Shown here one piece after another: positions 1 to 63,398 of a DNA stretch of 64,000 nucleotides; positions within the stretch are counted from its first letter, which is position 1, and each line of letters begins with the position of its first letter. Under the pieces are notes generated by a model. It worked only from the letters and a program-made list of their open reading frames with translations, was not told where the DNA came from and did not search any database. The DNA is from Smithella sp. (GTDB taxonomy: Bacteria > Desulfobacterota > Syntrophia > Syntrophales > Smithellaceae): contig JBEKRZ010000003.1 of assembly GCA_049517435.1 (NCBI GenBank), forward strand, positions 2,453-66,452, written 5' to 3'. The position numbers were made by a program, and so were the translations under genes.

Positions 1-455
1 ATTTCCTGAACCAGCGGCGTTATACCCGCTGTGGAACTCGGCGTGGCCATTAACTCGTCTACAGGCTGTCCCGCGTCTTCCACATAATCCGCCACGCGAG
101 CCCCCACCGCCAGGACTTTGCGGTTTTCTTTTTTCACGCCGGCGGCTTTGATGTAATCCAGCGCGAAAACGGAAATCTGCTCATTTAGTTGTCCGCATAA
201 ACCCTGATCGGAACCGAAAATTATCGCTCCCATGCGCTTAACAGCCGCGTCTTTGCTTTGCATCATCCCGCTCATTCGTTCCTTAAGCACAATTTGCAAT
301 CCCATTTCTACAGTCCGGTTGTAGTCGTTAAGAGACTCAACGGCCTTTTGATATTGCCGGATGCTCACGGCGGCCAGAGCCTTCATCGTTTTGACCACCG
401 ATAAAAGATCTCCCGCGCTTTTAATTCTTCTTTTCAGGGACTCAGTTGTTTGCAT
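1..455 (-). CDS. atpG: F/N-type ATPase gamma subunit (5' part of gene; runs off window start)
   Basis: Absent from the ORF track because it has no stop in the window. The minus-strand ATG at 455..453 translates to [42 protein letters not shown]..., a gamma-like N-terminus. It overlaps the atpA stop by 14 nt and takes the last position in the atpDCQRBEFAG order. Confidence 0.75.
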
Positions 456-2010
456 TTGCTTCCTCGACTTCTTCAAACGGAGCGATGGTCGGTTTGATTT
501 TATTCATGATGCTGTCACGATCCGCCATTTCCAGTTTTTTACCTTCTTCGATACGCCCGCACAATTCCGGCAATTGTTCGTTGACCGTTTGCAACAGGTG
601 TCCTTCCGCTTCGCGTATCTTATCGATCGGAACATGATCCAGGGCGCCGCCGGTCACTGACAACAGACTGGCAATTTGTTCTGACGCGCGCAAAGGCTTG
701 TACTGCCCCTGCTTCAGAATTTCACGAACGCGCCAGCCTCTCTCCAATACGCGCTTCGTGCTTTCGTCAAGCCTGGTGCCAAAACGAGAGAACGACTCCA
801 GCTCTTCAAATTGCGAGTAAGACAGGCGCAAATCTCCAGCTACGGAACGATAAGCGGGCAACTGAGTTTTGCCGCCAACACGCGAAACGGATTTGCCGAC
901 ATCCACCGCAGGCAAAATTCCTTTGTTGAAAAGCACCGGCGAAAGATAAATCTGTCCGTCCGTGATGGAAATCAGATTGGTCGGAATGTAAGACGACATG
1001 TCCTGCGCTTCCGTTTCGGTAACGGGCAAGGACGTCAACGACCCGCCGCCCAATTCCGGCCGCATATGCGTGGAACGCTCCAACAGACGCGAGTGGATAT
1101 AAAATATATCGCCGGGGAAAGCTTCACGCCCCGGTGGCCGCCGTAAAAGCAGCGACACTTCCCGGTAAGCACGGGCATGCGATGTCAGATCATCATAGAC
1201 AATCAACACATCACGTCCCTGCTCAACAAAATATTCTCCCATGCTTGTGGCCGCGTAAGGCGCGATAAACTGCAGGCCCGGCGTGTCTTCGCCCGTGGCC
1301 ACAACGACGATACACGATCCCATCACACCATGATCGCGCAATTCGGCAATCACTTTGGCCACATCGGCGCTTTTCTTGCCGACGGCGCAATAAATGGAAA
1401 TAATACCCGTTTCTTTTTGGTTGATAATTGTATCCACGGCAATGGCTGTTTTGCCGGTCATTCTGTCGCCCAAAATCAATTCGCGCTGGCCGCGGCCAAT
1501 GGGAATAAGCGCGTCAATGACTTTAATGCCGGTTTGCAGGGGCACTACCACAGGCGCGCGGTCCATAACCGCCGGCGCGGGTCTTTCGACCGGATAGCGC
1601 ATGACTGTATTGACCTCGCCCAGACCGTCGAGCGGACGTCCGAGAGGATCAACCACTCTTCCCAAAAGGCCGTCTCCCACCGGCACATCCAGAACGCGCT
1701 TGGTGCGGTGCACTTCCGAACCCACCTGCAGGTTTTCACTGGGGTCCAGAAGAATCACACCGATCTCCTCCGGATCAATATTAAACACCAGCCCCATATA
1801 GTTACCTGCAAAACGAACCAGTTCCTCTGCGCGGATGTGCGGCAGGCCGCCGACTCTGGCAATATCGCGTCCGACAAAATTGACCGTGCCGATTTCATAT
1901 TGTTTCAGTTCAGGATTCTGCTCGTCCAGAACCTTTTCCATGGTATCAAACGTATCGTCCAGGAAAGTCTTTAATTCCTTATTTTCCAATTGGCTAGACT
2001 CTTGATTCAT
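442..2010 (-). CDS. atpA: ATPase alpha subunit
   Basis: 522 aa. Walker A GDRMTGKT. Alpha-subunit similarity along the whole length ([21 protein letters not shown]). Confidence 0.95.
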
Positions 2011-2029
2011 TCTTCGCCTCCATTATTAT

Positions 2030-2187
2030 CTCTCGTCGCTTAGCTCCTTGGATAATTCCACTTACGCTTCGAATTTCATTTCATTCGTTTTACCACGGCG
2101 CTACGCGCCTGGTATAATTCGTCCAGCAAGCTTCAGCACACGCTGTTTCTGAAGTTTGGGTCTCATTATCAGCGAGTGTCATTATCA
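2030..2187 (-). repeat. H-family modular hairpin tract, copy R1 (inside the ATPase operon, between atpF and atpA)
   Basis: The minus strand reads AATGACACTCGCTGATAATGAGACCC...CGAAT-GAAATGAA-ATTCG-AAGCGTAAGTGGAATTATCC... It shares GGATAATTCCACTTRCGCTTCGA..TTCATTTCATT and AGCGAGTGTCATTA with R7. It lacks the CCCGTGATT terminus. Confidence 0.7.
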
Positions 2188-2958
2188 TCATGCCGCGTGC
2201 GCCTCTTTCTGGAGCGTTTCAGTCAGACTTTCCACCAGCGTCTCCAGATACTCATTGAGACTCCAGGCGATCTTATGCCCATTCACACGCAATTCAATGC
2301 CTGATACTATCTCCGGCTGCCTCATATACTGCAGAGTAAAACCGTTGGTTATCTGCTTCTTCAGAACTTCCTCGATTTGCGCCTGCCGGGACGCGGAAAT
2401 GCTAAAAGCGCTCTGGATAATCACCCGATTGCCGCCGCCCCTGATGGCATTGCGCATCTGAATGCTTTTTTCTTTATCGAGCGCTTTGATCCGGCGGATG
2501 AATTCATCCACAATCCGTTCCTCCAGATCGGCGTCCGCCAGATCGCGCAAGGCTTTACGCGCCGTGGCATATAATTGCTTGGCCACCCGCTGGCGCAAAT
2601 CGGAGAAAAAAGCGTCCTTTTCGCGAACCAGCATATCCTGCCAGCGCACCTTGACCTGATCAACTTCCTCGCGGACTTTTTCCATCAGTTCTTTACGCTT
2701 GGCATCAGCGGCCATTGTCGCCTCATTGAGCATCTGCTCTTTTGCTTCGTTGAGCAACTGGTTGCGCTTTTCATAAAGCCCGGCAGCCTCGGTTGCCTTG
2801 ACTTTCATATCTTCGGCGTCGGCAAACCGCGCGGTAATCTTCGCTTCTCTATCGTCCATCGCTTTAATGATTCGCCCATAAAGAAAGCGCTTCAGCAGAT
2901 AGACAAGCAAAAGAAAATTGAAGATCTGGCAAAACAAAACAAACCAGTCGATATGCAT
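2188..2958 (-). CDS. atpF: ATPase subunit b, long form with delta/OSCP-like C-terminal region
   Basis: 256 aa. N-terminal TM helix (WFVLFCQIFNFLLLVYLL) followed by a long charged helix. The C-terminal ~90 aa (RVIIQSAF...IELRVNGHKIAWSLNEYLETL) resembles the delta C-terminal domain. The operon has no separate delta gene. Confidence 0.8.
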   Translation of the reverse strand: MHIDWFVLFCQIFNFLLLVYLLKRFLYGRIIKAMDDREAKITARFADAEDMKVKATEAAGLYEKRNQLLNEAKEQMLNEATMAADAKRKELMEKVREEVDQVKVRWQDMLVREKDAFFSDLRQRVAKQLYATARKALRDLADADLEERIVDEFIRRIKALDKEKSIQMRNAIRGGGNRVIIQSAFSISASRQAQIEEVLKKQITNGFTLQYMRQPEIVSGIELRVNGHKIAWSLNEYLETLVESLTETLQKEAHAA

Positions 2959-2961
2959 GGA

Positions 2962-3237
2962 TCATCCCCCTGCCTTTACAAAGTAGCCCCAGAAAGGATT
3001 CGCAAAGATCACGATCATGGAAATAACAAAGCAGTAAATCGCGATAGATTCGATCATGGCGAGTCCCACAAATAGTGTTCTGGTCAAAGAATTTCGCTCA
3101 TCGGGTTGCTGGGCAATGGCGGCAAGAGCCTGCTGAATTGCCCGTCCTTGTCCCAGGGCCGGTCCGATTGAACCGATCGCCATCGTTAAACCCGCCGCAA
3201 TAATTGAAGCCACTGCAACTAAACTCAATTTATCCAT
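2962..3237 (-). CDS. atpE: ATPase c subunit (rotor ring), Na+-type ligand pattern
   Basis: 91 aa two-helix hairpin. Q in ALGQGR, and E-S...Y in MIESIAIY. This matches the Q32/E65/S66/Y70 Na+ ligand pattern of the Ilyobacter tartaricus c subunit, with I at the T67 position. Confidence 0.9.
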   Translation of the reverse strand: MDKLSLVAVASIIAAGLTMAIGSIGPALGQGRAIQQALAAIAQQPDERNSLTRTLFVGLAMIESIAIYCFVISMIVIFANPFWGYFVKAGG

Positions 3238-3272
3238 AAAAACTCCTCCTTATATAAATTTATTTATCAGGC

Positions 3273-3992
3273 TTATATGCCTTCGCTAACCTCTGTTTTA
3301 TGTGACTCCTCCTGGGCGCTCGCTGCCGAAGCGATATACACCATAGAAAGTATGGCAAAAATATATGCCTGGATCACCCCAATCAAAAGCCCCAGTGCCT
3401 GCATGATGACAGGGAATAACAGAGGCGTGACAGAAAGAAGAATTCCGATAACCTTCTCATGACTCATGATATTGCCAAAAAGCCGGACTGTCAGGGCGAG
3501 CGTTCTGGATATTTCCCCCATGACATGGAAAGGGAAGAAGATGAAATTGGGTTGAAAATACTCTTTCAAATAATGGAACACGCCGTTGCGCGAGATGCCG
3601 TAATAAGGAACTGCGACAAATACACACAAAGCAAGCGCCGCCGTTGTCATGAGCGATGCCGTGGGCGGAACATAACCGGGAATAATAGCCAGAACATTGG
3701 AGAGACAAATGAAAAGAAATAGAGTGCCGATCAAGGGAACATAGTCATCGACTCCCTTCTTGGTCATTTCCCTGATTTCTCCGCGGATAGTAGAAATAAC
3801 CACTTCGAGGAAATGCTGCCAACGGGAAACATTGATGCCGGTGGAAAGATTGCGCGTTATCAGCAAGGACCCGCTCACCAGAATTGCCATAACCAGCCAT
3901 GTATAGACAAGGGTTACATTTATAGTGATAAAACCCCATGTCCAGAGAATAACCTGATCTGGGCTGATTTGATTAATGGCTACTATTTCCAT
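3273..3992 (-). CDS. atpB: ATPase a subunit
   Basis: 239 aa polytopic membrane protein with the stator Arg motif LTVRLFGNIMSHE. Confidence 0.9.
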   Translation of the reverse strand: MEIVAINQISPDQVILWTWGFITINVTLVYTWLVMAILVSGSLLITRNLSTGINVSRWQHFLEVVISTIRGEIREMTKKGVDDYVPLIGTLFLFICLSNVLAIIPGYVPPTASLMTTAALALCVFVAVPYYGISRNGVFHYLKEYFQPNFIFFPFHVMGEISRTLALTVRLFGNIMSHEKVIGILLSVTPLLFPVIMQALGLLIGVIQAYIFAILSMVYIASAASAQEESHKTEVSEGI

Positions 3993-4032
3993 TTGAACTC
4001 CTAAGTTGGCTGTGGAAAAATTTTATAATATT

Positions 4033-4341
4033 CTAAATCGCTTTATCCATTCCCAGGCGTCGTGTGAGAATCATCCTCATTAAAATGAAACCGATAAGCG
4101 CCATGGCCAGACGCTCCCAATGCTCTCCGCCCATAACTAAATAAAATCCCGCCATCACCACCGCCATCCGTATAATAAAGCTTCCGAGCATCAGGCGCGC
4201 GGGACTATGAGCTTTCGGCAACTGACGCACTGTTCGCCACAGAGCGGTAAAATAAAACGCTCCAAGGGCTAGACCAGCGGCAAAAGCTACGATTGTCGGA
4301 AACAACATTGCCGGATTAAGTATGCTGTTCATCATCTTCAT
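4033..4341 (-). CDS. atpR: N-ATPase AtpR-like small membrane protein
   Basis: 102 aa with about 3 TM helices and an Arg within a helix (ALWRTVRQL). It sits between atpQ and atpB, as in N-ATPase operons, and overlaps atpQ by 26 nt. Confidence 0.7.
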   Translation of the reverse strand: MKMMNSILNPAMLFPTIVAFAAGLALGAFYFTALWRTVRQLPKAHSPARLMLGSFIIRMAVVMAGFYLVMGGEHWERLAMALIGFILMRMILTRRLGMDKAI

Positions 4342-4669
4342 CTTCCTCGATAATTTTGCTGCGAACTTTTTTTACCCAGTATGCCGCATTGATGCATCCC
4401 AACACCACACCGATAATCAGAAACATCAACGCCCAGGAATAACGGCTCGGCCAAGTACGGTCAATCCACAGACCCAGCGCAACCCCGATCAGTGTGGGGA
4501 TAGCTACAGACCAGCCGACAATGCCGAACATACCCAGACCGAACCAGACGGTCTCGTCTTTGTGCCGAAGTGCCTTCTGCCGCAGCGCCTCTTTTTTGGC
4601 CACCTGTTCGGTGAAATGATTTGCCATTTTTTGGCGTCGCGTGCTTGGTGTTCGTCTTATTTCAACCAT
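4316..4669 (-). CDS. atpQ: N-ATPase AtpQ (AtpI/AtpZ-like) membrane protein
   Basis: 117 aa ORF; the more likely start is MANHF at 4627. Two TM helices WFGLGMFGIVGWSVAIPTLIGVALGLWIDR typical of ATPase_gene1-type proteins. Position follows atpC. Confidence 0.7.
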   Translation of the reverse strand: MVEIRRTPSTRRQKMANHFTEQVAKKEALRQKALRHKDETVWFGLGMFGIVGWSVAIPTLIGVALGLWIDRTWPSRYSWALMFLIIGVVLGCINAAYWVKKVRSKIIEEDEDDEQHT

Positions 4670-4711
4670 GTTTCTTACTCCCCTGGAGATGTTCTACGTT
4701 CTAATGTCCTT

Positions 4712-4931
4712 TCACTATTCATCCCGCGTCGCTGCGCTCCTGGGATAATTTCCAATAGCCTTTGGCTATTGGATAATTCGTCTTGCAAATTTCACTACAC
4801 TTCGCTTGTGAAATTTGAGACTCATTACGACTTACACTTCAAACCTACAGTGACCTTTAGGTTATTCGCTATGCTCGTTTTCAGAGAGTCTCACTACGAC
4901 TTACTCTTCCTATAGTCAGTGAGTCTCATTA

Positions 4932-4946
<15 letters not shown>
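4712..4946 (-). repeat. H-family modular hairpin tract, copy R2 (inside the ATPase operon, between atpC and atpQ)
   Basis: The minus strand reads GTGGAACTAAAATAGTAATGAGACTCACTGACTATAGGAAG..., colinear with the start of R5. Shared modules are AACGAGCATAGCGAA, AAATTTCAC-N12-GTGAAATTT and CCAATAGCCAAAGGCTATTGGAAATTATCCC. Its first 15 nt encode the last 4 codons and the stop of atpC. Confidence 0.75.
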
Positions 4947-6705
<1,759 letters not shown>

Positions 6706-7558: not shown

Positions 7559-7672
7559 TCTTTCATCCCTCTTTCCATAGAGTTACTATGATAAAAAAAT
7601 CTCACTTAAGTGAATCCGTCCTGTCAATTCCGTTACTTGGAATCCCCCGGTTCCTGCTGGAGGGGGCTCCAC

Positions 7673-8143
7673 TTACTGTGTATTCTTTATCGCCAGCAAT
7701 TCCAGTTTCATTAATTTCCAGAATTGTCTGGCAATAACATACATAATGTAGTCGAACATGAGAATTGTCCGGCTAAGACTTCCCACCGCCTGTCTGTGCT
7801 CTACCTCTGCATTAAACATGGCTTGAAACTCCGCATATAACCACATATGCCTCCTCATCAGAATCAGAGCATACAACGCTTCGTGCAGAGGAATTCCCTC
7901 TCTATATCTTTCCTCCGCGTACTTTTCGAAAATTTCTTCCGCCTGTTCATACGGTGATTCATGAAAAAACATCATTTGAAAATTACTGTAAAAATCTTTG
8001 GCTTGAAGAATAATTTTATCCTCAGATGCCTCATGATAGGTATAAGTTTTCGCGTTAGTCTTCACATCCTTTGCCCATTGCTTGACGATTGTTTCAGCGT
8101 TTTTCTGAGTTAAATCTATGAGTTTTGTGGTAAAAGCTTTCAT
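7673..8143 (-). CDS. Soluble RsbRA-N/globin-fold-like sensor domain protein (paralog of 6731..7558)
   Basis: 156 aa, alignable end to end with the N-terminal half of the downstream gene. Preceded by a sigma54-type promoter and an AAGGG ribosome-binding site. Confidence 0.55.
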   Translation of the reverse strand: MKAFTTKLIDLTQKNAETIVKQWAKDVKTNAKTYTYHEASEDKIILQAKDFYSNFQMMFFHESPYEQAEEIFEKYAEERYREGIPLHEALYALILMRRHMWLYAEFQAMFNAEVEHRQAVGSLSRTILMFDYIMYVIARQFWKLMKLELLAIKNTQ

Positions 8144-12144: not shown

Positions 12145-12372
12145 ATACCATTTCGATTGGAAGTTGCCACCTGTTCGGCGTCACTTCCCGGTAGGGTAAA
12201 AAGTTATTATTGCGTGCCCCTTGGTTACGCACCCGGTCAAAGGATCAGCATCGGTAAGGAAAAGGCGATGAGGCGTATAACCTGAAGATCACGCTAGGTC
12301 ACGCGTTGCACATACGTTAAGGAAGCCGACAACGATGCCAACAAAAATAGTGCTTTGATTTAAAATTAGAAT
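12145..12372. mobile_element. M-family MITE-like element, long variant with degenerate termini
   Basis: Left end ATACCATTTCGATTGG; right end CTTTGATTTAAAATTAGAAT. The core GGCGATGAGGCGTAT...ATACGTTAAGGAAGCCGACAACGATGCCAACAAAAATAG is shared with 16086, 42094, 49433 and 63236. Confidence 0.6.
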
Positions 12373-12503
12373 AACATAAATTATTCTTATCTACAAATAA
12401 TAGTTATAACTTTTTTAAATTTTAAGAAAAGCCCCGGACTTTTTTGCATATATATAGGTTGAAACTACCGCAAAAGAGGAATATAAAACTTCTTTGAAAC
12501 CTT

Positions 12504-14057: not shown

Positions 14058-14195
14058 AAATTTATAATGAGACTTAATTTTTACAATCCCGCAGGATTGC
14101 GGGAGAAGTAAAAATTTTTAGTCGAATTATCCCGATACCAAAGCGTATCGGGATTAAATTCCAAATATGGTCTTAGGTTTTGCCCAAGAGTAATG
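14058..14195 (+). repeat. H-family modular hairpin element, copy R3 (degenerate termini)
   Basis: Starts AAATTTATAATGAGACTT. Contains hairpins TCCCGCA-GGAT-TGCGGGA and AATTATCCCGATAC-CAAAGC-GTATCGGGAT. Ends TTCCAAATATGGTCTTAGGTTTTGCCCAAGAG. Confidence 0.6.
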
Positions 14196-14942: not shown

Positions 14943-14956
14943 CCGATTAATTTATT

Positions 14957-15063
14957 GTTGAAACTCTAATTCTAATGAAACTCAGATATTACAAACGTAG
15001 TGCAGTAATATCTGCAAATTGAATTATCCCACGTGTGAAGCTAAGGGGGACTATACCTGTGAT
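14957..15063 (+). repeat. H-family modular hairpin element, copy R4 (shortest, both termini)
   Basis: GTTGAAACTCTAATTC ... hairpin CAGATATTAC-N13-GTAATATCTG ... AATTATCCC ... GGGGGACTATACCTGTGATT. The 3' end abuts the TPM gene stop codon. Confidence 0.7.
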
Positions 15064-15851
15064 TAAAAATCTCCCCCGGCGCCGCCGCCGCCGCTCATGC
15101 CGCCACCAAAACCACCAAATCCTCCGCCGAAACCGCCGCCATCACCTTTACCACCGCCACGGCCGCCGCTCAATAACAGAAGCAATATCCAAGGAAGCAT
15201 TGATCTGCCTGTTCTTGTGCCTAAAAGCAAAGCAGCCGCAATCAGAAAAAAAATGATTTGAAAAACGTTAATGCTTTTTTGCTTGACCCGGGCATTGGTC
15301 CGGTATGGCGCGGGCGAACCACTCAACTGAACACCGGCATCTTTGGCAATAATAGAGCTAAGAACATACACCGTATCATAAAAAGCCTGACCATAATTAC
15401 CTGCCTGGAGTTGCGGTTTTAGATATTTGTCTCTAATTTCGCCGACTAAACCATCCGGCAATATACCCTCTACGCCGTAACCGGTTTCAATCCTGATTTT
15501 GCGTTCCTTAAGCGTCAAAAATACTAAAACGCCCTTGTCTTCGCCTTTTTTGCTGATACCCCACGCCTTATAAAGGCCATTGACATAAAGACTGGTTTCT
15601 TCCCCTTCTCCGATAGTAGGGACCGTTACCACAACAACCGCCGTGCCTGTTTTTTCTAAGACTTCACGCGACAGGGCTTCAATTTTAGCGGCGTTATCCT
15701 GATCAATGATATTGGCAAAATCATTGACGGCGCCACGCGGCAAAGGGTACTTATCGGCTGCAAATATGGCATTGGTTATCAGCGCCATAAACAGCGCGAC
15801 GGCCAGAGCCAGTATTATTTTATATCTATTGCTTAAAGATTTATTTTTCAC
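15063..15851 (-). CDS. TPM-domain (YgcG-like) membrane protein with Gly-rich tail
   Basis: 262 aa. Signal/anchor, then a TPM-like region (VNDFANII...VVVVTVPTIG...GVLVFLTLKERKIRIETGYG), a TM helix, and a GGGFGGGFGGFGGG tail. Confidence 0.8.
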   Translation of the reverse strand: MKNKSLSNRYKIILALAVALFMALITNAIFAADKYPLPRGAVNDFANIIDQDNAAKIEALSREVLEKTGTAVVVVTVPTIGEGEETSLYVNGLYKAWGISKKGEDKGVLVFLTLKERKIRIETGYGVEGILPDGLVGEIRDKYLKPQLQAGNYGQAFYDTVYVLSSIIAKDAGVQLSGSPAPYRTNARVKQKSINVFQIIFFLIAAALLLGTRTGRSMLPWILLLLLSGGRGGGKGDGGGFGGGFGGFGGGMSGGGGAGGDF

Positions 15852-16085: not shown

Positions 16086-16277
16086 ATACCAATTCGATTT
16101 CTTTGGCTAACTTTGTTGGCGTCGTTGTCGGCTTCCTCAACGTATTACCAATACGCCTCGTCGCCTCCGCCTAGCCCCACTCAAGAGGGACAGTTTAACT
16201 AACGAATTACAGATTACTGCGTAACTGTAATTCGAGTTTCACTGCCGCCTCGTTATCCTTTGAAATCGGAATGGTAT
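16086..16277. mobile_element. M-family MITE-like element, full copy
   Basis: The termini ATACCAATTCGATTTCTTTGG and CCTTTGAAATCGGAATGGTAT are inverted repeats. The core is GTTGGCGTCGTTGTCGGCTTCCTCAACGTATTACCAATACGCCTCGTCGCCTCCGCCTAGCC. Confidence 0.7.
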
Positions 16278-16331: not shown

Positions 16332-17873
16332 TTGTGCAGAAAACCTATGTCACTAAAAATAATTTTGATCCATCCGCCGATTGCCAAATGTTCTGAACCG
16401 CCAGCGGGCATCGCCAAATTATCCGCCTGTCTGAATGCGAATAAAATTTACCATAAAGTTATTGACGCCAATCTGGAAGGCATCCTCTACCTGCTTAAGC
16501 ATGTTTCCAATAACAATACAACCACCGATAGATGGACAACACGTGCCGTAAAAAATCTAGAACGCAATCTTGTTGCTCTGCAAGACATCGCCACCTACAA
16601 AAGTCCAAGCCGCTACCAACGGGCAGTTATGGATATTAATCATCTTTTAAAGGTGGCGGGTAAATCATTGGGAGTTGATCTATCGCTTGCCGATTATCAC
16701 GATCTATGTCTATCCCCGATAAAGAGTACCGACTTAATATCCGCGGCCGAAAAACCGCGGGCTAATCCTTTCTATCCTTACTTTCAACATCGCCTGATTA
16801 ATGCGCTGGAAGAAAATCCGGATTTTGTCGGTTTTTCTTTAAATTACCTCAGCCAGGCGCTTTGTACTTTTGCCATGATCGGTTTCGTCAAGCAACTTCA
16901 GCCGCGACAAAAAATTATATTAGGCGGATCGCTGGTTACTTCCTGGATTAGACTCGGCACAGATAGGAATATTTTTCATGGGCTTGTGGATGAAATGATT
17001 GCAGGTGCGGGAGAACAAAAATTATTGGAGCTTCTAGGCGTTGAAGACGACTCGACCACCCACCCACCTGATTACAATTGTTTTCCACTTGATCAATATT
17101 TATCGCCTGGTCTGATCCTTCCCTACAGCAGCGCGCGTGGCTGTTACTGGCACAAATGCGCTTTTTGCCCGGAAAAAGCGGAAGGCAATGCTTATTTGCC
17201 TCTTGAGATTTCTCAGGTCACACAAGATTTGCAAATCTTAACAAGGCAGATGAATCCCACACTGATTCATATTCTGGATAGCTCTATTTCTCCGTCACTG
17301 CTCAACGCTCTGGCGCAAACGCCACCAGGCGTTCCCTGGTATGGTTTTACCCGGATCACTCAACATTTAACTGATGAAGATTTTTGTTTTTCCTTAAAAC
17401 GTAGCGGCTGTGCCATGCTCAAACTGGGAATTGAATCCGGCGATCAAGAAGTGCTTGATCAACTGAACAAAGGAATAGATTTGCCGACAGCGTCAGCTGT
17501 TTTAAAAACGCTGAAAAAAGCAGGCATTGCCACTTATTGCTATTTTCTGTTCGGCACACCACCGGAAAATCAGGAAAGCGCAGCAAAGACGATGGATTTT
17601 GTTTGTCAGCATCATGATTGCATTGATTTTTTAAATCTGGCAATTTTTAATTTGCCGTCTCAGAGCGTTGAAGCGCAAAGCCTGGCGACGCATGATTTTT
17701 ATGAAGGCGATTTGTCTTTGTACAAAAACTTTCAGCACCCCTTTGGCTGGCAGAGACCTGCCGTGCGCAATTTTTTAGAGAAGACTTTTAAAAAGCATCC
17801 GGCAATAGCTCCAATACTCCGACGCACACCGGAATTTTTCACCTCCAACCACGCACCGTTTTTTTGTTCGTGA
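16332..17873 (+). CDS. B12-binding-domain radical SAM protein
   Basis: 513 aa; the likely true start is ATG at 16347 (MSLKIILIHPP). Radical SAM cluster motif CYWHKCAFC (CX3CX2C). Confidence 0.85.
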   Translation: MCRKPMSLKIILIHPPIAKCSEPPAGIAKLSACLNANKIYHKVIDANLEGILYLLKHVSNNNTTTDRWTTRAVKNLERNLVALQDIATYKSPSRYQRAVMDINHLLKVAGKSLGVDLSLADYHDLCLSPIKSTDLISAAEKPRANPFYPYFQHRLINALEENPDFVGFSLNYLSQALCTFAMIGFVKQLQPRQKIILGGSLVTSWIRLGTDRNIFHGLVDEMIAGAGEQKLLELLGVEDDSTTHPPDYNCFPLDQYLSPGLILPYSSARGCYWHKCAFCPEKAEGNAYLPLEISQVTQDLQILTRQMNPTLIHILDSSISPSLLNALAQTPPGVPWYGFTRITQHLTDEDFCFSLKRSGCAMLKLGIESGDQEVLDQLNKGIDLPTASAVLKTLKKAGIATYCYFLFGTPPENQESAAKTMDFVCQHHDCIDFLNLAIFNLPSQSVEAQSLATHDFYEGDLSLYKNFQHPFGWQRPAVRNFLEKTFKKHPAIAPILRRTPEFFTSNHAPFFCS

Positions 17874-18159
17874 AACTACAATTTAATGAGACTCGCTGAC
17901 TATAGGAAGCGTTAGTTGTAGTGAGACTCAAATTTCATAAGCGCAGCAGAATGAAATTTGTAAGTCGAACTAATGACACTTGCTAAGAACGAGCATAGCG
18001 AAGTTCGAAGCACAAGTGGAATTATCATGCATGCAAAGCATACAGTGGTATCCAATAGCCAAAGGCTATTGGAAATTATCCCGCATAAGCGGGGTATGAT
18101 ACCCAACAGCTTGCCGAGAAATGTTTCCAAAGTTTGCTTTTGGTTTCATACCCGTGATT
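17871..18159 (+). repeat. H-family modular hairpin element, copy R5 (longest, both termini)
   Basis: Begins at the rSAM stop codon (TGAAACTACAATTTAATGAGACTCGCTGACTATAGGAAG). Carries at least 5 hairpin modules. Ends TTTCCAAAGTTTGCTTTTGGTTTCATACCCGTGATT. Confidence 0.8.
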
Positions 18160-18349
18160 GATAATAAGCAATAATATTATGATTACAATATTTGTTACAC
18201 CTACAGAGTTTCGGGAGTAGGCAGTTATCCGAATTGAGGATTACCATTTTAATTGTGGTATCCGACATAATCTAATGAGACAAGTAAGGACTTGCCCTGC
18301 ATTTGTAATGGCAGTGCGATCTGGAAACGCTGGGGTGTCAAGCGGAACT

Positions 18350-19969: not shown

Positions 19970-20195
19970 TTTTTGCCTCGTAAACTTCCTTTTGCGGTTT
20001 CAATGAGTTTGCACCTGAGTGCTGGGTCCGGTTGACCCGCCTTGGATATTTGTACCACATGTTAAGTTAGAGTTCAGCAGTTTTTTGATTATTTCCAATT
20101 GAAATGTTGTATGAATTTGGAAAATAAGAAAAACAACCAGGAAGAAATGCTTGCTGAAAACAAATTATGAAAAACGAATGATACTTATTCTAATC

Positions 20196-20330
20196 TGGCA
20201 GAGACATGCCGTGCGCAATTTCCTGGAAAAGACTTTCAAAAAGCATCCGGCGGTAGCTCCGATAATCAGACGCGCACCGGAATTTTTCACCTCCAACCAC
20301 GTACCGTTTTTTATTGACAACAAGCAATAA
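20196..20330 (+). pseudogene. 5'-truncated remnant of a paralogous B12-radical SAM gene (last ~40 codons)
   Basis: In-frame match to codons WQRPAVRNFLEKTFKKHPAIAPILRRTPEFFTSNHAPFF of 16332..17873. Over 39 codons I counted 7 synonymous-only and 5 replacement differences. No homology upstream of 20196. Confidence 0.7.
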
Positions 20331-20342
20331 TATTATAATTAT
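20314..20342 (+). promoter_or_regulatory. Promoter-like box (TTGACA, AT-rich -10 region) conserved after three rSAM gene tails
   Basis: TTGACAACAAGCAATAATATTATAATTAT. Related boxes occur at 18158 (TTGATAATAAGCAATAATATTATGATTAC) and 28665 (TTGACAACAGATGGTTAATATTATAGATA). The -10 assignment is ambiguous: AATTAT at a 17-nt spacer, or TATAAT at 14 nt. Confidence 0.45.
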
Positions 20343-20416
20343 AAGACTTGTTACGCAGGTCCACACAGTCTAAATAAATTGCAATAAATAATTGATTATT
20401 AAAGTTTAGGAGGTTA

Positions 20417-20522
20417 ACATAGATAAAGGCAAACATGGGGTAATCCGGCAACGCAAAACCACGTGTCCGAAAGTATTCGTTAAGAGGATACACGGAAAGA
20501 CGGGTTACCGAAGTGCATATGG
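20417..20522 (+). promoter_or_regulatory. Candidate c-di-GMP-I (GEMM-I) riboswitch in the adhesin leader
   Basis: Ordered blocks: AAAGGCAAAC (20425-20434); a short hairpin UGGG-GUAA-UCCG with a GNRA loop (20436-20447); ACGCAAAAC (20451-20459); a hairpin CGUGUCC...GGAUACACG (20462-20494); and GGGUUACCGA (20502-20511). From memory, Vibrio cholerae Vc2 has GGGCAAACC / GAAA hairpin / GACGCAAAGCC / P3 hairpin / GGGGUUACCGA. Confidence 0.55.
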
Positions 20523-20557: not shown

Positions 20558-23500
20558 ATGGGAAATAAAAGCGTTTTTACCGGTGTTGTATTGATTATTT
20601 GTTATGGGAAAAAACTGGTTGACCAAGCGAGTTCAAGCCTGAACAATTGGCGTATCATGGCGACGCGCATTATGCTTTTGCTGATGGCTAGTGCCATTTG
20701 GCTGGTATGCGCCGGTGCGTCGTACGGAGCCATCATTATCAATGCTCCGATGACCGATACCAATAGCGCTGGCTGGGTATTGGGCGGCACACCCACTTCA
20801 TCCTTGCTGACAGGAAACGGTACAATCGATCCCGCTGGTTCGGGGTGGCTACGCCTGACCAACAATTCTGGTAACCAGACCGGTTTTGCCTATAATACAA
20901 CATCTTTCGATCTGAGCCAGGGAGTTCTCGTCCAGTTTGACTATGCCACATGGGGAGGAACCGGAGCAGACGGCTATAGTGTCTACCTGTTCGATGCAGG
21001 GGTAAGTACCTTCAACATAGGCGCCTTCGGAGGTTCTCTCGGCTACGCGCAAAAACTGCCACCAGCCGTTACCCCAGCCGTTCCGGGGATCAGCGGCGGT
21101 TATGTGGGGGTTGGCGTCGATGAGTACGGTAACTTTAGCAATCCCACTGAAGGGCGTTATCTAGGCCCCGGCGCTTATCCCAATACGGTAACAGTCCGTG
21201 GTCCTGTCGTCGGTTTCGGAGGGGGTGCAATCGGTGATACGATCAACGCCTCCTCCTATCCCTGGATAGCAACGTCCGCCAACAACGGCTCACTCTGGTA
21301 CAACGGCACAACCAGACCGGATCAGACCAGCACGAACTATCGGAAGGTGGTGATACTGGTCAGCCCTGCGCCGAATCCGGTCGTCAATGCCTGGATTCAA
21401 TTCGGTTACAACCAGCCGCTTACCCAGATGATTACCAATCAAGCGCTTCCCGCGATCTCGACGTCGCAACTATTGCATATCGGCTATGCCGCAAGTACCG
21501 GCGGTTCTACCAACTATCATGAAATCCGTAACCTGCTGGTAACCAGCCTAAACACGAGCACCGGAATCGACTTGGGCATCACCAAATCTGTTCTCGACAC
21601 GACGACAAGTTCGACAACTATCACAGCCGTAGGGGATGGCATCCGCTATACCGTTACCGCCCGTAACTACGGCCCCAACAACGTGACCGCTACCGGCGTG
21701 GGGATTGTCGACAACGTGCCGGCAACCATAACAGGGGTCACTTGGACCTGCGCCGTCGTTTCCGGCTCGCCGGCTGGGACAAGCTGCGGGGCGGCCTCCG
21801 GCTCAGGAAACAACCTGAACACCACTGCCAACCTTCCATATGGCGGAGCGGTTACTTATACCATCAATGGTACCGTGGGCGCGTCGGCACCAAGTACGCT
21901 CAGTAATACTGTAATCCTCGTCATCCCTGGATCGGTCGTAGATTACAATTCAGCCAACAACAGCGCCACAGCTAGCATTGCTGTTACATCCAACCTCTCG
22001 ACTTCGACCAAAACATGGCAGGATTTAAACGGAGGCGATCAGAATCCCAACGACGTGTTGCAGTTCACAATCAATCTGAAAGAGACCGCTGGCGCTGCCG
22101 CTTCAGGCGTTTCGGTAACGGACACACTACCGCTTACTCTGACTAATCTGACGGTCATAAGTTTCCCCGCCGGTGCGACCAACAACTCCACCAGTAGCGC
22201 TCTTAACATCACCGGCGTGTCGGTCCCGGCAAACGGCTCTGCTACGATCGTCTTCCAGGCAACCATCGCGAACGGGACGGCGGCAGGAACCCTGATCAAT
22301 AATACAGCGACCATCACCAACCCGAACGGCGCTATCGCGAGCCCTTCTTCGCCGACGATCACGGTCTCCGCGTCGCAGATTCCCGCCACTGGCAACAAGC
22401 CGCTCTATCTCTATGGAGGGGCTGCATCACCTTACAAGATGTCCCGTTACCCTACGCCGGGCACACCCACCACCGCTGCCATCGCTGCCAACGGAGGTTC
22501 GGCGGTCTGGAACGGGAATTGGAACGGGCTTGCCAGCAGCACGTTGCCCCTGCAGCTCAACGACACGATAACATCGGCCACCGCCACGCTCTACATCAAC
22601 GGTAGCTCCAATAACACTCGTAATGTCGAAGTACGCTTATACTGCTCCTCGAACGCTGCGGCCTACGCCTCCTGGCCATCAGCGGCCCTTGCCACGAACC
22701 CGCCCGTACCACCGGCGACGCCGACGGCGTATATCTTCAATCTGACGACTCTCAACGGTGGATTTACCTTCCCCGCCACCTGTGCCACGCCTAACTACTG
22801 GGTGCTGCAGGTGTTCAACAGAACCACAACTGCCGGACGGACGATTACCGTTGTTCCGGTGAGTGGCACGAACATTTCACAAGTCCTATTGGCCTCTAAC
22901 AACGTTATCAACGTGAACAGCGTCAACAACTACAGCGCGCCCTATCCCAGCGTTTCAACTCCCGCTGCGGGATATTATGTGGGAAGCCAGTGGGTCTATG
23001 TGCGGGCTTTGGTGAGCGACCCCTTTGGCAGCTACGATATCACTTCGGCATCAGTCACGATCAAGGATCCCAATAACAATGTCGTTGTAACCGCCGCCCC
23101 AATGTCTGTGCCCACCGGCGGCGACTCGGGCGCTGCGACCAAGTACTACGAGTACGCCTACCAAATCCCTTCCGCCGGCCCGGCGGGATACTGGACCGCC
23201 AGCGTGACGGTAAAAGAAGGGACTGAGAACACGGTCTCACATACCGCCGCGGGCGCATTCCAGGTGGTTCTGCCGCCGCTCCTGACTGTCGTTAAGTCAT
23301 CGAGTCCCAGTCCCAGCGTAAGCCCCGGAGGGGTTGTCATCTACACGGTACTTGTTACCAACACCGGCGCCGGAACAGCTACCAGCGTAGTTATAAATGA
23401 TATCTTAAGTCCCTACGTCCAGTGGGGGCTTAATTCCTATGGTACAGGAATCGCATTCCAGTTTACGGACGGTACGCCCGCTTCGGGGCTAACCCTCGGC

Positions 23501-23656
23501 ACGCCTGTCTATTCCAATAACCACGGAGCCACGTGGACCTATGTGCCCTCTGGCACGTACGACGGCAATGTTACTAACTGGCAGATTCCCATGAGCGGTA
23601 CGATGAACGCTAACGGGGCTAATTTTACTATCAAATATAAGGTGCGCGTCAATTAG
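20558..23656 (+). CDS. Large secreted surface protein: N-terminal lectin/ConA-like domain plus DUF11-type repeat domains
   Basis: 1032-aa ORF. The probable start is ATG at 20657 (MATRIMLLLMASAIWLVCAGASYGA, a signal peptide). GWLRLTNNSGNQTGFAYN is lectin-like. DUF11-like units are present (DLGITKSV...GDGIRYTVTARNYGPNNVTATGVGIVDNVPATITG; LTVVKSSSPS...VIYTVLVTNTGAGTATSVVINDIL). GC is about 55% against 30-38% in the flanks (hand-counted 60-nt samples). Confidence 0.75.
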   Translation: MGNKSVFTGVVLIICYGKKLVDQASSSLNNWRIMATRIMLLLMASAIWLVCAGASYGAIIINAPMTDTNSAGWVLGGTPTSSLLTGNGTIDPAGSGWLRLTNNSGNQTGFAYNTTSFDLSQGVLVQFDYATWGGTGADGYSVYLFDAGVSTFNIGAFGGSLGYAQKLPPAVTPAVPGISGGYVGVGVDEYGNFSNPTEGRYLGPGAYPNTVTVRGPVVGFGGGAIGDTINASSYPWIATSANNGSLWYNGTTRPDQTSTNYRKVVILVSPAPNPVVNAWIQFGYNQPLTQMITNQALPAISTSQLLHIGYAASTGGSTNYHEIRNLLVTSLNTSTGIDLGITKSVLDTTTSSTTITAVGDGIRYTVTARNYGPNNVTATGVGIVDNVPATITGVTWTCAVVSGSPAGTSCGAASGSGNNLNTTANLPYGGAVTYTINGTVGASAPSTLSNTVILVIPGSVVDYNSANNSATASIAVTSNLSTSTKTWQDLNGGDQNPNDVLQFTINLKETAGAAASGVSVTDTLPLTLTNLTVISFPAGATNNSTSSALNITGVSVPANGSATIVFQATIANGTAAGTLINNTATITNPNGAIASPSSPTITVSASQIPATGNKPLYLYGGAASPYKMSRYPTPGTPTTAAIAANGGSAVWNGNWNGLASSTLPLQLNDTITSATATLYINGSSNNTRNVEVRLYCSSNAAAYASWPSAALATNPPVPPATPTAYIFNLTTLNGGFTFPATCATPNYWVLQVFNRTTTAGRTITVVPVSGTNISQVLLASNNVINVNSVNNYSAPYPSVSTPAAGYYVGSQWVYVRALVSDPFGSYDITSASVTIKDPNNNVVVTAAPMSVPTGGDSGAATKYYEYAYQIPSAGPAGYWTASVTVKEGTENTVSHTAAGAFQVVLPPLLTVVKSSSPSPSVSPGGVVIYTVLVTNTGAGTATSVVINDILSPYVQWGLNSYGTGIAFQFTDGTPASGLTLGTPVYSNNHGATWTYVPSGTYDGNVTNWQIPMSGTMNANGANFTIKYKVRVN

Positions 23657-23810: not shown

Positions 23811-24305
23811 TCATAACTGCGATTGATCGGTCACTTCTAAAATGGCATCTACAGCCGGTTGCACAAGCGCCTGCACCTTGGGCGAAAGGGTTCGTTTAAA
23901 ATCAAAATCGTAACCGCGTATGGATACCAGATGCGCCTTGGGTTCACTCTGATGCATAGTTTTGAGAAATGCCAAAAGTGTCGCAGGCGTCATGTGATGG
24001 GTAAATGAAGAAGAAACATATTGTGCTTCAACCGGCGAGCAGTTGAGATCTTCCAGATCGGAACCGACATGGGCATCAACAAAAATTATTTTATCATAGC
24101 CCGTGAGCAGTTCCATTATTTCCGGCACAAGCTGGAGTAGGAAGATTGAATCATTGTCGCCACTCAGTTCATCCAGACCGGTATCACCTTCTTCCAGCAG
24201 TTTCTGCCCCAGTTGCCGGCGCAATTCGTTTATGACAGCAAAAGCAACGCCATCGTCCGCGCAGTATATATTGCCATAACCAATAATAATTGTTTTGGAA
24301 TTCAT
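23811..24305 (-). CDS. [NiFe]-hydrogenase maturation endopeptidase
   Basis: Start reassigned to ATG at 24305 (MNSKTIIIGYGNIYCADDGVAFAV), a HycI/HoxW-type motif. The 58-codon N-terminal extension in the ORF track runs through repeat R6. Confidence 0.8.
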   Translation of the reverse strand: MNSKTIIIGYGNIYCADDGVAFAVINELRRQLGQKLLEEGDTGLDELSGDNDSIFLLQLVPEIMELLTGYDKIIFVDAHVGSDLEDLNCSPVEAQYVSSSFTHHMTPATLLAFLKTMHQSEPKAHLVSIRGYDFDFKRTLSPKVQALVQPAVDAILEVTDQSQL

Positions 24306-24311
24306 TTTATT

Positions 24312-24448
24312 GTTGAAACTCCAATTTCGAAAGCGAAGCGCAGCGGAATTGGTAAGTTGAACAATCCCGCGAAGCGGAGGGTTTAATACCCCGCAGCTTG
24401 CTGCGGAATCTGTTTCCAAAGCTTGCTTTAGGGTTCGTTCCCGTGATT
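24312..24448 (+). repeat. H-family modular hairpin element, copy R6 (both termini)
   Basis: Starts GTTGAAACTCCAATTTCG-AAAGCGAAGCGCAG-CGGAATTGG. Contains CCGC-GAA-GCGG and CCGCAG-CTTG-CTGCGG. Ends TTTCCAAAGCTTGCTTTAGGGTTCGTTCCCGTGATT. It is antisense to the hydrogenase operon. Confidence 0.8.
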
Positions 24449-26511: not shown

Positions 26512-28326
26512 TCATTTAAGTGACTTCATCACTTCGGCTGAAACTTTATCTATAGACACGGCAATATTCTTGCCCAGTTCTGCGGATAATAATTGCAATG
26601 CTTCCCAGTCCGGCTTAGCATCGCCCGCAGGTTCTACCGCTTTATTGATATTCTGTATTCTTCCTTCGATATTGGTCAAACTGCTGTTTTGTTCCGACCA
26701 GATTGTCACAGGCAATACCAGATCCGCCCGTTCTGTAAGAGGCGATAAGTAACTTGCCTGCGCCACGATAAACGTATTTTTGGGAACCCCCTTGAATAAA
26801 TCATCGCTCTCGTAATTTTGCTCACCCATTAAGACATATAAAAGTTTGAGGCCGGCCGGATTATAACCGTTATTTAATCCTAACGCCGCCGCGGCTTTCG
26901 TGTTGACGCCCGATTCAATTATAATGTAGTTTGCTTTATCTTTCAGTTTCTTGAGCTCGGCCATGGCAGTTTTGGTAATACCAGTGCCGTAGAGAATAAA
27001 CGGATTATTGGCTCTTTTGGCAACTTCAATGGCTTTATTTATATCAGCCATATTGACATTCATGAAGGCAAACGGAGCCAGACCGTTTTTCTTATTATCA
27101 ACCACAATCAGTCTTGCTCCTTTGTCCACGGCGCGTTTAATAATGAAGGAAGCAACCGGCTGGTCGTTTAAAGGATCGGCACCGGCAACAAGAATAATAT
27201 CGCTTTTGGCAATATCCTCCAACTTGCTCTGAACCTTGTCGAAAATCCTGGGAGCCACAGTATTGGTGAGGCCGATATTGGAGACCTTCAATTTCTCATT
27301 GAATAATTTTTTAATTAAATACAGGGCTTCATTAGAAGAATAACTTCCCGTAAGCACGCCTATTTCCGAAGCCTTGACTGTGTTAATCTGTTTAGCCAAA
27401 GTCTGGATTGCTTCTTCCCAGCTTACTTCTTTGAACTTTCCTTTAGTGCGTAAAAGAGGAGCGGTAAGTCTCTGGCGGCTATCATATAAGGGTTCAAAAC
27501 GGCCCATTTTGCAGAGCAGTCCTTTATTGACCGGAGCATCCCAATCACCCAAAACACACAGAACATTTCCGCCGCGTGTTACAACTTCCGTACCACAGCC
27601 GATGCCGCATTGATTGCAGGTGCTTTTAACTTTTGTAGTCAGGCTGTCTTTGCCCATAAAAGCGCTTCTTTTATAAAACAGCGCTCCCGTTGGACAAACC
27701 TGAGTACAGGTGCCGCAGGAAATACAGGAAGATTCACCAAGCGGAATATTGGCATCCGCTCGAACCATACTCTCGCTTCCGCGTTGCCCTAAACCCAAAG
27801 TGTGATTGGCCACAAGCTCATCGCAGGCGCGAATACATCTTCCGCAAAGAACACACCGGTTGTGTTCCATCAGGTAGTATTTATGCGTGGCATCCAGTGG
27901 AAAAGCTTTTGTATAAGTGGAGAATACCCAGTGATCTACATGATAACGGTAGCCGAGATTCTGCAACTCGCAACTGCCGCTCATCTCACAATATGGACAA
28001 AAATGATTTCTTTCCGAAAAAATCATATCCAGAACAAGCTTGCGGGCATCAGTCACCATTTTGGAATCTGTCTGTATTTCCATTCCTTCGGTTACAGGAA
28101 ATGTACATGAAGTCTGCAAAGCACGCTGCCCTTTTATTTCTACGATACACATTCGGCAAGCCCCAACCGCAGACAGCGCGGGATGGTCACAAAGCGTGGG
28201 GATATCAATGCCCGCTTCCCTTGCGGCCTGCAGAACGGTAATTCCCGCCTTTGTGCTGATTTTCTGGCCATTAATAATAATATTTGCCATAGTCATCTTT
28301 TGTCTCGCCTCCTTATCATTAACCAT
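26512..28326 (-). CDS. Fe-S electron-transfer subunit, HoxU/NuoG-like (2Fe-2S + multiple 4Fe-4S + truncated molybdopterin-oxidoreductase-like domain)
   Basis: 604 aa. Cluster motifs: CDHPALSAVGACRMC (2Fe-2S), HFCPYCEMSGSC, CVLCGRCIRAC, CISCGTCTQVCP and CNQCGIGC. These are followed by a roughly 360-aa NuoG/FdhA-like C-terminal domain. Confidence 0.8.
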   Translation of the reverse strand: MVNDKEARQKMTMANIIINGQKISTKAGITVLQAAREAGIDIPTLCDHPALSAVGACRMCIVEIKGQRALQTSCTFPVTEGMEIQTDSKMVTDARKLVLDMIFSERNHFCPYCEMSGSCELQNLGYRYHVDHWVFSTYTKAFPLDATHKYYLMEHNRCVLCGRCIRACDELVANHTLGLGQRGSESMVRADANIPLGESSCISCGTCTQVCPTGALFYKRSAFMGKDSLTTKVKSTCNQCGIGCGTEVVTRGGNVLCVLGDWDAPVNKGLLCKMGRFEPLYDSRQRLTAPLLRTKGKFKEVSWEEAIQTLAKQINTVKASEIGVLTGSYSSNEALYLIKKLFNEKLKVSNIGLTNTVAPRIFDKVQSKLEDIAKSDIILVAGADPLNDQPVASFIIKRAVDKGARLIVVDNKKNGLAPFAFMNVNMADINKAIEVAKRANNPFILYGTGITKTAMAELKKLKDKANYIIIESGVNTKAAAALGLNNGYNPAGLKLLYVLMGEQNYESDDLFKGVPKNTFIVAQASYLSPLTERADLVLPVTIWSEQNSSLTNIEGRIQNINKAVEPAGDAKPDWEALQLLSAELGKNIAVSIDKVSAEVMKSLK

Positions 28327-28490
28327 TTTATGCTTTTACGTAATAATGACTGATCCTGTTGATGTTAATCAGGTACTTTTACTTAAATATTATCTAGTGG
28401 TATGCCTTTCTTGTCAATAAAAAAATGTCATAAGGCTAAAAAACTGCAAGTTATGAAAAATAAATATTCGTAATCTTGTAGGAGGCTGAT

Positions 28491-28601
28491 GTACATAATT
28501 TCTCGGAGAAAAGTTTCAAGAAACATCCGGCAACAGCTCTAATACTCAGGCGCAAAACAGGATTTCTTTCCTTCCAACTACACACCATTTTTCATTTTTA
28601 A
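28491..28601 (+). pseudogene. Second, more diverged 5'-truncated rSAM gene-tail remnant
   Basis: The in-frame translation VHNFSEKSFKKHPATALILRRKTGFLSFQLHTIFHF* aligns with VRNFLEKTFKKHPAIAPILRRTPEFFTSNHAPFF. A TTGACA box follows at 28665. Confidence 0.5.
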
Positions 28602-28785
28602 TAAATCCGGCTAATACACCTTTGCTTCCAGCTGAATTAACGCAATAGAGATTCATTGACAACAGATGGTTAATATTATAGATATTTCAGCCAACCCGGA
28701 TAATAAATGATTTTTACTCAGAACACTAAACTTCAGGTTACAAGACCTTGATATTAAATTCTAAAGATGTGATGAATATATCATA

Positions 28786-42068: not shown

Positions 42069-42093
42069 AGTCTGATCTCCATTTTTTTATTTT

Positions 42094-60461: not shown

Positions 60462-60467
60462 ATGAAA

Positions 60468-63360: not shown

Positions 63361-63398
63361 AAATACTGCGGACAAAAATGTGAAACGGAGGTTGAGCG

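Follow-up and report, generated by a model that had tools for sequence, protein, structure and literature searches.

The 64,000-nucleotide (nt) stretch of Smithella sp. DNA analysed here, the window (contig JBEKRZ010000003.1), carries a 10-bp hairpin, C-AAATTTCAC / GTGAAATTT-G, at 4786-4817 on the minus strand, inside an operon for an N-type ATPase. This hairpin was found to be one module, M1, of a mosaic hairpin element (H-element), a non-coding repeat present at eight loci of the window. We put a probability of roughly 60% on the reading that these elements are an undescribed repeat family of Smithella/Syntrophaceae resembling REP/BIME (repetitive extragenic palindromes and their bacterial interspersed mosaic elements) or BOX repeats, and that the family is selfish, its fold being needed for propagation, possibly as single-stranded DNA (ssDNA). 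It is a new family of a familiar type of selfish bacterial repeat, not a new kind of system or a new principle.

The first-pass annotation of this DNA had matched the hairpin with a second one, had pointed out a compensatory change between them, and had argued that the structure itself is selected in a single-stranded nucleic acid of defined polarity. The two hairpins do share one module, as the minus strand of 4787-4816 reads AAATTTCAC-AAGCGAAGTGTA-GTGAAATTT and the plus strand of 17930-17959 reads AAATTTCAT-AAGCGCAGCAGA-ATGAAATTT, and the closing pair changes from C-G to T-A as described. Pairing is intact in both, but the stem, given as 9 bp, is 10 bp long in each when the flanking C-G pair is added (4786-4817; 17929-17960, C-AAATTTCAT / ATGAAATTT-G). 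Self-comparison of the window showed that the similarity extends around both hairpins in opposite orientation (4742-4931 versus 17884-18082). The 12-nt loop AAGCGAAGTGTA itself contains a 2-bp mini-stem (G.T, C-G) and a GAA triloop, and the loop of the partner, AAGCGCAGCAGA, has the tip GC-GCA-GC. These features belong to a general plan. An element is a string of ~50-nt units, each made of a hairpin and a conserved, single-stranded linker, (G)TAATGAGACTC or G-Y-AAGT-N-GAATTATCC. The hairpin has three tiers: a stem of 9-10 bp, free in sequence, leads through a small internal loop rich in A and G to a 2-bp mini-stem with a purine-N-A triloop, often as GCGNAGC; extra hairpins are nested within some M1 loops.

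Covariation was examined in M1 copies picked by their linkers alone (left anchor TGAGAC, right anchor G..G.CGAA, core 32 nt), with pairing not a criterion. The gapless alignment, A2, held 49 distinct copies, and the fold tested comprised the 10 stem pairs plus the 2-bp mini-stem closing the triloop. Standard pairs filled 95.7% of the cells compared with 79.2 ± 0.9% in shuffled alignments, and none of 500 shuffles was as high. Changes on both sides occurred at all 12 pairs, compensatory cells numbered 113 versus 31 in shuffles, and the covariation score was 0.557 versus 0.232. When the 3' partner was slid by 1-3 columns as a control, only 24-39% of the cells paired. The closing pair was present in all four Watson-Crick forms (GC 23, AU 16, CG 6 and UA 2), and 34 distinct 10-bp stems were counted, 13 of them perfect and the others with 1-3 mismatches. 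The copies are related by descent, so the cell counts overstate the number of independent events. With more copies, the fold is seen to be kept by compensatory change far beyond the single pair that the first-pass annotation had noticed.

A second module, M2, follows the same three-tier plan, with CGCT/AGCG, a GA/GA (or AA/GA) internal loop, GANC/GN'TC, and a mini-hairpin. Its search pattern fixed part of the 3' arm, and covariation was read at the free positions. Positions 9/24, within GANC/GN'TC, were A-T in 40 copies, G-C in 28 and T-A in 3, with 8 mismatches (n = 79); positions 13/19 were G-C in 51, A-T in 27 and G.T in 1; and positions 14/18 were C-G in 43, T-A in 23, T.G in 8 and C.A in 2. 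The M2 "loop" AATGAAATGAA in turn consists of an A-T/T-A mini-stem enclosing a GAA triloop. The same module had been described as keeping its loop while exchanging one stem for another. One half of that exchange, GATC-GAATGAAATGAA-GATC, is present at 62325-62344 on the minus strand, in element RD (R7 in the first-pass annotation), but the other half, CGAAT/ATTCG in element RF (R1), is not homologous to GATC/GATC. At that site (2070-2087, minus strand) the proposed stem overlaps the string earlier named as the loop and represents an alternative pairing in a degenerate M2 copy of the GANC/GN'TC family pattern.

Mismatches in the stems were then counted with a finder that scored G.T and A.C alike and was thus strand-symmetric, in elements oriented by their linkers. 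Among all stems of at least 7 pairs, G.T and A.C numbered 76 and 80 when one transition mismatch was allowed, and 67 and 67 when any single mismatch was allowed. Unique stems of at least 8 pairs gave 21 and 19, and the M1 10-bp stem 5 and 5, plus 19 transversion-type mismatches. Because G.T and A.C are about equal in all of these counts, the long stems carry no wobble signature of the folded strand. This undercuts the strand-specific G-U pair that had been adduced for a defined polarity. The stem in question, CCAATTTCG/CGGAATTGG with T.G on the plus strand, was located at 24321-24352 in element RB (R6), as reported. It lies a single C-to-T step from the family consensus CCAATTCCG/CGGAATTGG, and the M1 hairpin of RF (2127-2158, minus strand), CAAACTTCAG/CTGAAGCTTG, shows the reverse case, with A.C on the sense strand.

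Strand-symmetric long-stem mismatches, many of them transversions, are as in unselected decay, and they would suit an explanation without any structure-based selection, in which the arms are held complementary mechanically, by intrastrand template switching (quasipalindrome correction) or by gene conversion between arms and copies, and compensation is a by-product. The shuffling of modules between copies and the equally good folding of both DNA strands of element RA (z = -4.6 sense and -5.1 antisense against shuffles) fit this as well. Template switching would not, however, hold stems to 9-10 bp, unit cores to 32-33 nt and the layout to three tiers across 34 stem sequences and two module types, nor would it tie the tip motif and the purine-rich internal loops so strongly to one strand or make tip stems prefer G.T over A.C. 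We hold a purely mechanical origin of the matched arms to be rather improbable.

The polarity of the element is real, and the evidence for it is located at the hairpin tips, not in the G-U pair previously cited. In 20.9 kb of elements, the sense strand had 107 occurrences of GCGNAGC (5.1/kb) and the antisense strand 4 (0.19/kb), compared with a window background of 0.21/kb; GCTTGC, a CTTG-type loop, occurred 29 and 4 times, respectively. The enrichment of the loops in motifs of stable hairpins had thus been read correctly. The triloop was purine-N-A in 43 of the 49 M1 copies, the general form of the tip being C-RNA-G (R, purine; N, any base). G.T/T.G outnumbered A.C/C.A by 16 to 3 in the 2-bp stems at the tips of M1 and M2, in varied sequence contexts (binomial p ~0.004). 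It is plausible that selection is visible at the tip only, as one mismatch is trivial in a 10-bp stem and destroys a 2-bp stem.

The tip motif itself hints at DNA. GCGNAGC and GCGNNAGC are the classic DNA mini-hairpins of Hirao et al.; as DNA they are extraordinarily stable, as RNA much weaker, and an RNA hairpin corresponding to the first, r(GCGAAAGC), is far less stable. They are known from the ssiA primase site, from origins of single-stranded phages and from the N4 single-stranded promoters (PMC13037366). The tip of many modules is exactly this heptamer, nearly always on the sense strand. What the name mini-hairpin denotes is a structural motif rather than a family of elements, and its known contexts are not chromosomal repeats. 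Folding energy contributed little on polarity. RA (17865-18156, plus strand, ~292 nt) folded better than shuffles as RNA on each strand (z = -5.6 sense and -3.5 antisense), and raw RNA folding energy was better on the sense strand in 101 of 154 elements. Against composition-matched shuffles of the same 154 elements this sense advantage was gone (z = -2.96 versus -2.85, p = 0.14), and it was rejected as evidence of polarity.

The first-pass annotation implied a functional structured RNA, that is, cis-acting stabilisers in mRNA 3' untranslated regions or within operons, processing sites or protein platforms, with the hairpins kept by selection on the transcript. Both copies in the N-type ATPase operon are indeed sense, and elements often begin with TAATGA at or just past a stop codon. 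With open reading frames (ORFs) called by a crude longest-ORF rule, 66 copies lay between co-directional genes, 46 of them with the sense strand on the strand of the genes; relative to an upstream gene within 300 nt, the strand was the same for 63 copies and opposite for 31. This bias could come from an RNA-level cost or benefit, or equally from strand-specific insertion beside T-tracts on the coding strand after genes. An RNA role also agrees with the replacement of an intrinsic terminator (contig L206) by an element at the orthologous site (contig L140), with the tolerance of tip stems for G.U, and with the stronger RNA fold of RA on its sense strand.

Several results nevertheless speak against selection on the transcript in situ. 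The other 20 of the 66 copies, ~30%, are antisense. Within the window RE, RF and RA are sense, and three further copies, RB, RC (14951-15064) and 14065-14155, have the antisense orientation relative to the ORFs on either side. Intrinsic terminators precede many copies. Stems of sense copies were no better kept than those of antisense copies, perfect stems amounting to 42% in sense-in-operon and 47% in antisense copies, and counting on the mRNA strand of copies between co-directional genes gave G.U 19 versus A.C 15, so that long stems show no G.U excess on the mRNA strand either. The folding advantage of the sense strand did not survive composition control, RA had no match in Rfam 15 at the gathering threshold or at E values up to 5, and the dominant tip motif is typical of DNA. 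Nothing terminator-like was found within elements on either strand; the hairpins run into GTAAGTCGAA or GGAATTATCC. We consider a functional RNA unlikely, though the least unlikely of the alternatives.

Filled and empty orthologous sites, together with the lack of target duplications and terminal inverted repeats, indicate that the elements are mobile or expandable DNA. RA, with the 5' end TGTTCGTGAAACT and the 3' end CATACCCGTG, breaks a 160-nt sequence (17747-17864 plus 18157-18198), whose paralogue at 20195-20354 (plus strand) is uninterrupted and represents the empty site, with the junction TTTTTT/ATTGAC. The atpC-atpQ spacer is ~262 nt longer in the window, where it holds element RE, than in contig L176, where 13 nt part the stop and start codons and no element is present. 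A canonical 151-nt element in contig L175 is cleanly absent from L235, and further filled/empty pairs are L219/L177 and L129/L134. The broken sequence belongs to a ~160-nt repeat in three copies (17747-17864, 20195-20312 and 28475-28592, plus 18157-18198 and 20313-20354; 89% and 65% identity) that ends in a promoter-like TTGACA-N17-TATAAT. Its first copy overlaps the 3' end of a radical-SAM ORF (16332-17873) and is split by RA, and its second lies upstream of a cyclic di-GMP (c-di-GMP) riboswitch.

No target-site duplication was found at five filled/empty junctions, in 33 full-length copies, or in the flank consensus. Complete copies have asymmetric ends, 5' TTGTGAAACTCCAATT and 3' CAAAGCTTGCTTTGGGGTTCATACCCGTGAT(T); they start TTGT(T)GAAACTCCAATT and finish CAAAGCTTGCTTTGGGGTTCATACCCGTGAT(T), and the end consensuses of the 33 full-length copies have at most TGAA(A)C / GTTCA in common. 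An apparent TGAAAC/GTTTCA terminal inverted repeat in RA was rejected, since it is not kept from copy to copy. The 5' flank is rich in T and mostly ends in TTA, RA being an exception, and the foot of the 3' subterminal CTTG hairpin lies ~14 nt from the element end. These results bear on a further explanation, a classical MITE (a miniature transposable element with inverted repeats) moved by cut-and-paste by a DDE transposase. The elements are short, non-coding, multi-copy, intergenic and polymorphic for presence or absence, as a MITE would be, but their ends are not inverted repeats (5' TTGTGAAACTCC versus 3' GGTTCATACCCGTGAT) and target-site duplications are missing from the junctions and full-length copies, in contrast to the true MITE with 30-bp terminal inverted repeats that the window also holds. 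A MITE origin of the H-elements is thus very improbable.

That MITE belongs to a second, unrelated repeat family, with a full copy of ~145 nt at 42084-42228 bounded by TTTTATACCAATTCTAAATCAAAG... / ...CTTTGATTTAGAATTGGTATTATTTATAAA and related pieces at 12310-12380, 16106-16176, 49435-49484, 60417-60472 and 63309-63363. In contigs L155 and L174, MITE-like sequence follows directly after the 3' end of an H-element.

The arrays also change in place. The orthologous atpF-atpA and atpC-atpQ junctions of other strains (L176, L166 and L137) differ in module content from those of the window, holding shorter arrays of other modules; at the atpF-atpA junction, the counterparts of RF in L176 and L166 are of this kind. 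This shows that arrays gain and lose modules in situ. In contig L212 (Ga0209719_1000231), at least three almost identical units of M2 and a third module type, M3, follow one another head to tail with a period of ~75 nt, which shows that local amplification of units is possible. Many copies have no canonical ends and start at TAATGA, immediately behind a stop codon or the T-tract of a terminator; the TAATGA motif of L166 itself provides the atpF stop codon.

Within the window, self-comparison and motif scans placed the eight loci at ~1 copy per 8 kb, and the copies are mosaics of common modules in differing number and order. Of the 16 perfect hairpins of at least 9 bp in the window, 9 fall in repeat elements; first-order Markov random sequence gave 4.05 ± 2.4 such hairpins. 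Two copies occupy intergenic junctions of the N-type ATPase operon (442-6696, minus strand; atpD, atpC, atpQ/gene1, atpR, atpB, atpE, atpF, atpA), with the sense strand being the operon strand in each. RF (2011-2187, minus strand) lies between atpF (stop 2188-2190) and atpA, and RE (4670-4931, minus strand), which includes the 4786-4817 hairpin among ~5 hairpin modules, lies between atpC (stop 4932-4934) and atpQ. The short copy at 14065-14155 (plus strand) has an M1 with a hairpin nested in its loop and an M3-type hairpin (14129-14154). RC (plus strand) is a complete short element with the 5' end TTGTTGAAACTC, the 3' end ACCTGTGATT and the M1 hairpin CAGATATTAC/GTAATATCTG at 14983-15014. Another short copy, at ~16185-16246 on the minus strand, consists of GTGAAACTC followed by the M1 hairpin CGAATTACAG/CTGTAATTCG (16203-16234), and the same variant was also found in contigs L158 and L218. 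RB (24305-24448, plus strand) ends in a 3'-terminal hairpin with a CTTG loop; it is antisense both to the hydrogenase gene beside it and to the ORF that lies downstream. RD (62205-62386, minus strand) lies between divergent genes and has, besides its M2, a 3'-terminal CTTG hairpin and an M3 hairpin (62283-62306) that reads TCCCACATG-GCTTCG-CATGTGGGA on the plus strand, the loop being CGAAGC on the element sense strand. The orientations of the copies (- - + + - + + -) show no simple pattern relative to GC skew. The cumulative GC skew has its minimum at ~28000-30000, where the GC content is the second lowest of the window (0.387) and near which most gene orientations switch; this could reflect a switch of replication direction or chance.

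Among known systems, the REP/BIME repeats of Enterobacteria and Pseudomonas, which are mobilised by the transposase RAYT, are similar in several respects. They too are short extragenic imperfect palindromes in mosaic clusters with linker motifs, located after stop codons and between operon genes, co-transcribed, and free of target-site duplications and terminal inverted repeats. The size and copy number of REPs (imperfect palindromes of 20-40 nt, high copy, extragenic) are matched by modules of 30-33 nt, eight window loci and at least 120 metagenome loci. REP structure is recognised on one strand of ssDNA, REP hairpins are bound and cut as ssDNA by RAYT, with the E. coli RAYT binding ssDNA REP, and the hallmark of REPs is a conserved GTAG (or CGTC) tetranucleotide at the stem foot (PMC3733652). 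Here, in contrast, the foot of the stem has no GTAG/CGTC tag. The sequence before the stem is GAGAC(T/C)C, and GTAG is confined to a minority linker variant, TAGTGAGAC (4 of 49 M1 copies), in which it lies 8 nt from the stem. Furthermore, linkers are conserved and stems free in this family, whereas in REPs the palindrome is conserved, and the three-tier hairpin with its purine-N-A triloop tip and the many copies with defined asymmetric ends also differ.

The BOX repeats of Streptococcus pneumoniae (boxA-boxB(n)-boxC) are similar in their modular non-coding make-up, in that their 5' and 3' end modules are distinct, their internal modules vary in number and their predicted folds are stable, and they also lie in intergenic regions and within transcripts. 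That likeness, compared by description, is architectural only and concerns a host of another phylum; BOX modules are conserved in sequence and do not covary, whereas here several internal module types and nested loop insertions occur. Palindrome-associated transposable elements (PATEs) derived from IS200/IS605 likewise have no terminal inverted repeat or target-site duplication, and have asymmetric ends with a subterminal hairpin, whose 3' foot in the H-elements is ~14 nt from the end. PATEs insert 3' of a fixed short target, and the 5' flank of the H-elements is T-rich and ends in TTA in most copies, though not in RA. The whole body consists of hairpins here, however, not the ends alone, and many copies are without canonical ends; no full-length insertion sequence encoding TnpA with matching ends was found, in ~640 kb only. 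The unusual traits of this family are its conserved linkers with freely covarying stems, its fixed three-tier hairpin, and its strand-specific DNA-mini-hairpin tip.

Target-site duplications and terminal inverted repeats are absent, the ends are asymmetric and have a subterminal hairpin, some copies in operons are antisense, and maintenance in situ is lacking. On these grounds we favour selection on the fold during propagation, with ssDNA as the likely substrate, a step that we infer. The fold would be kept because the element lineage needs its hairpins to propagate. The folding molecule would most likely be one defined strand of ssDNA, and a structure-specific enzyme may recognise this strand, by analogy with the HUH/Y1 transposases (IS200/IS605 TnpA, RAYT) acting on REP or IS-end hairpins. 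Single copies would then decay neutrally, and a copy in an operon would be co-transcribed, with its RNA hairpins probably a side effect that does not terminate transcription.

A bolder version would make the units new ssDNA signals. The hairpin arrays with DNA mini-hairpin tips would be read on one strand by a dedicated enzyme (an HUH-type nuclease, primase-like protein or recombinase) that copies or inserts single ~50-nt units, growing the arrays in operons module by module, unlike REP/RAYT and IS200/IS605. We regard this as a long shot.

Several points weigh against a selfish repeat that propagates through its fold. No transposase or partner protein appeared among the top Pfam families of the 32 window ORFs, and no RAYT gene flanked by repeats (a REPtron) was found there or by a tblastn search of ~640 kb with an IS200 TnpA sequence. 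That search, a weak test, gave no IS200 TnpA match at all, and no longer element with the same ends (5' and 3' motifs 0.45-6 kb apart enclosing a gene) was found in the same ~640 kb, a small sample that makes this test weak as well. The mobile unit is not defined, because many copies begin directly at TAATGA without canonical ends. The tip-stem wobble excess rests on 19 events, a small number; the 46 to 20 sense preference would also be explained by an RNA-level effect; and intrastrand template switching could yield matched arms without selection.

Scanning of a metagenome collection with the exact 20-base module pattern TCGAAGCNNAAGTGGAATTATC returned matches at at least 120 loci, in samples from fen and peat, lake sediment, digesters and sludge, and 182 element clusters remained in 574 kb after removal of redundancy. 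Genome contigs were scanned with the 14-base 5'-end motif TGTTGAAACTNNAATT, an unspecific pattern with at least 120 matches, mostly chance; among these, true copies were present in contig L112 of a Smithella sp. metagenome-assembled genome (MAG) and contig L074 of a Syntrophaceae MAG. Because these two contigs carry true copies, we infer that the host of the family is Smithella/Syntrophales, phylum Thermodesulfobacteriota. No description of the family was found in the literature searched on Smithella or Syntrophus repeats, and REP surveys do not cover these taxa. A single contig of the viral collection carried the element, L244 (IMGVR_UViG_3300028603_003986). It looks like a fragment of a tailed prophage, not an ssDNA phage, and a phage link was rejected. 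At 2500-2800 of L244, two element fragments lie just upstream of an ORF with a putative GH108-type phage lysin N-terminus; the repeats colonise this prophage-like region too.

The window is otherwise ordinary chromosome, with the N-type ATPase operon, a NiFe hydrogenase, sigma-54 regulators, EF-G-type GTPases (BipA/RF3-like) and Lon. The only window match above the Rfam gathering score was a c-di-GMP-I riboswitch (RF01051, 48.3 bits, E = 2e-6) at 20418-20512 on the plus strand, upstream of a 1032-aa ORF (20558-23656). An inverted-repeat pair, 7624-7693 versus 33239-33372 (55 and 43 nt, 71-72% complementary), may be a third small repeat family; among its GC-rich hairpins is TCCCCCGGCTGAAGCCGGGGGA (33332-33353).

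Strong covariation in selfish DNA with no sign of maintenance of individual copies makes this family a clean natural case, and a warning that covariation among repeat copies does not prove a functional RNA. With its strand-specific GCGNAGC tips, it is also a natural system in which the cellular role of this motif can be studied. Smithella and its relatives are key syntrophic degraders of alkanes and propionate and are known almost solely from metagenomes. A repeat at the density seen in the window fragments assemblies, misleads binning and causes structured non-coding RNA to be predicted too often, and it could serve as a lineage marker. For the organism itself, copies directly past stop codons in essential operons (ATP synthase, hydrogenase) may affect the expression of these genes.

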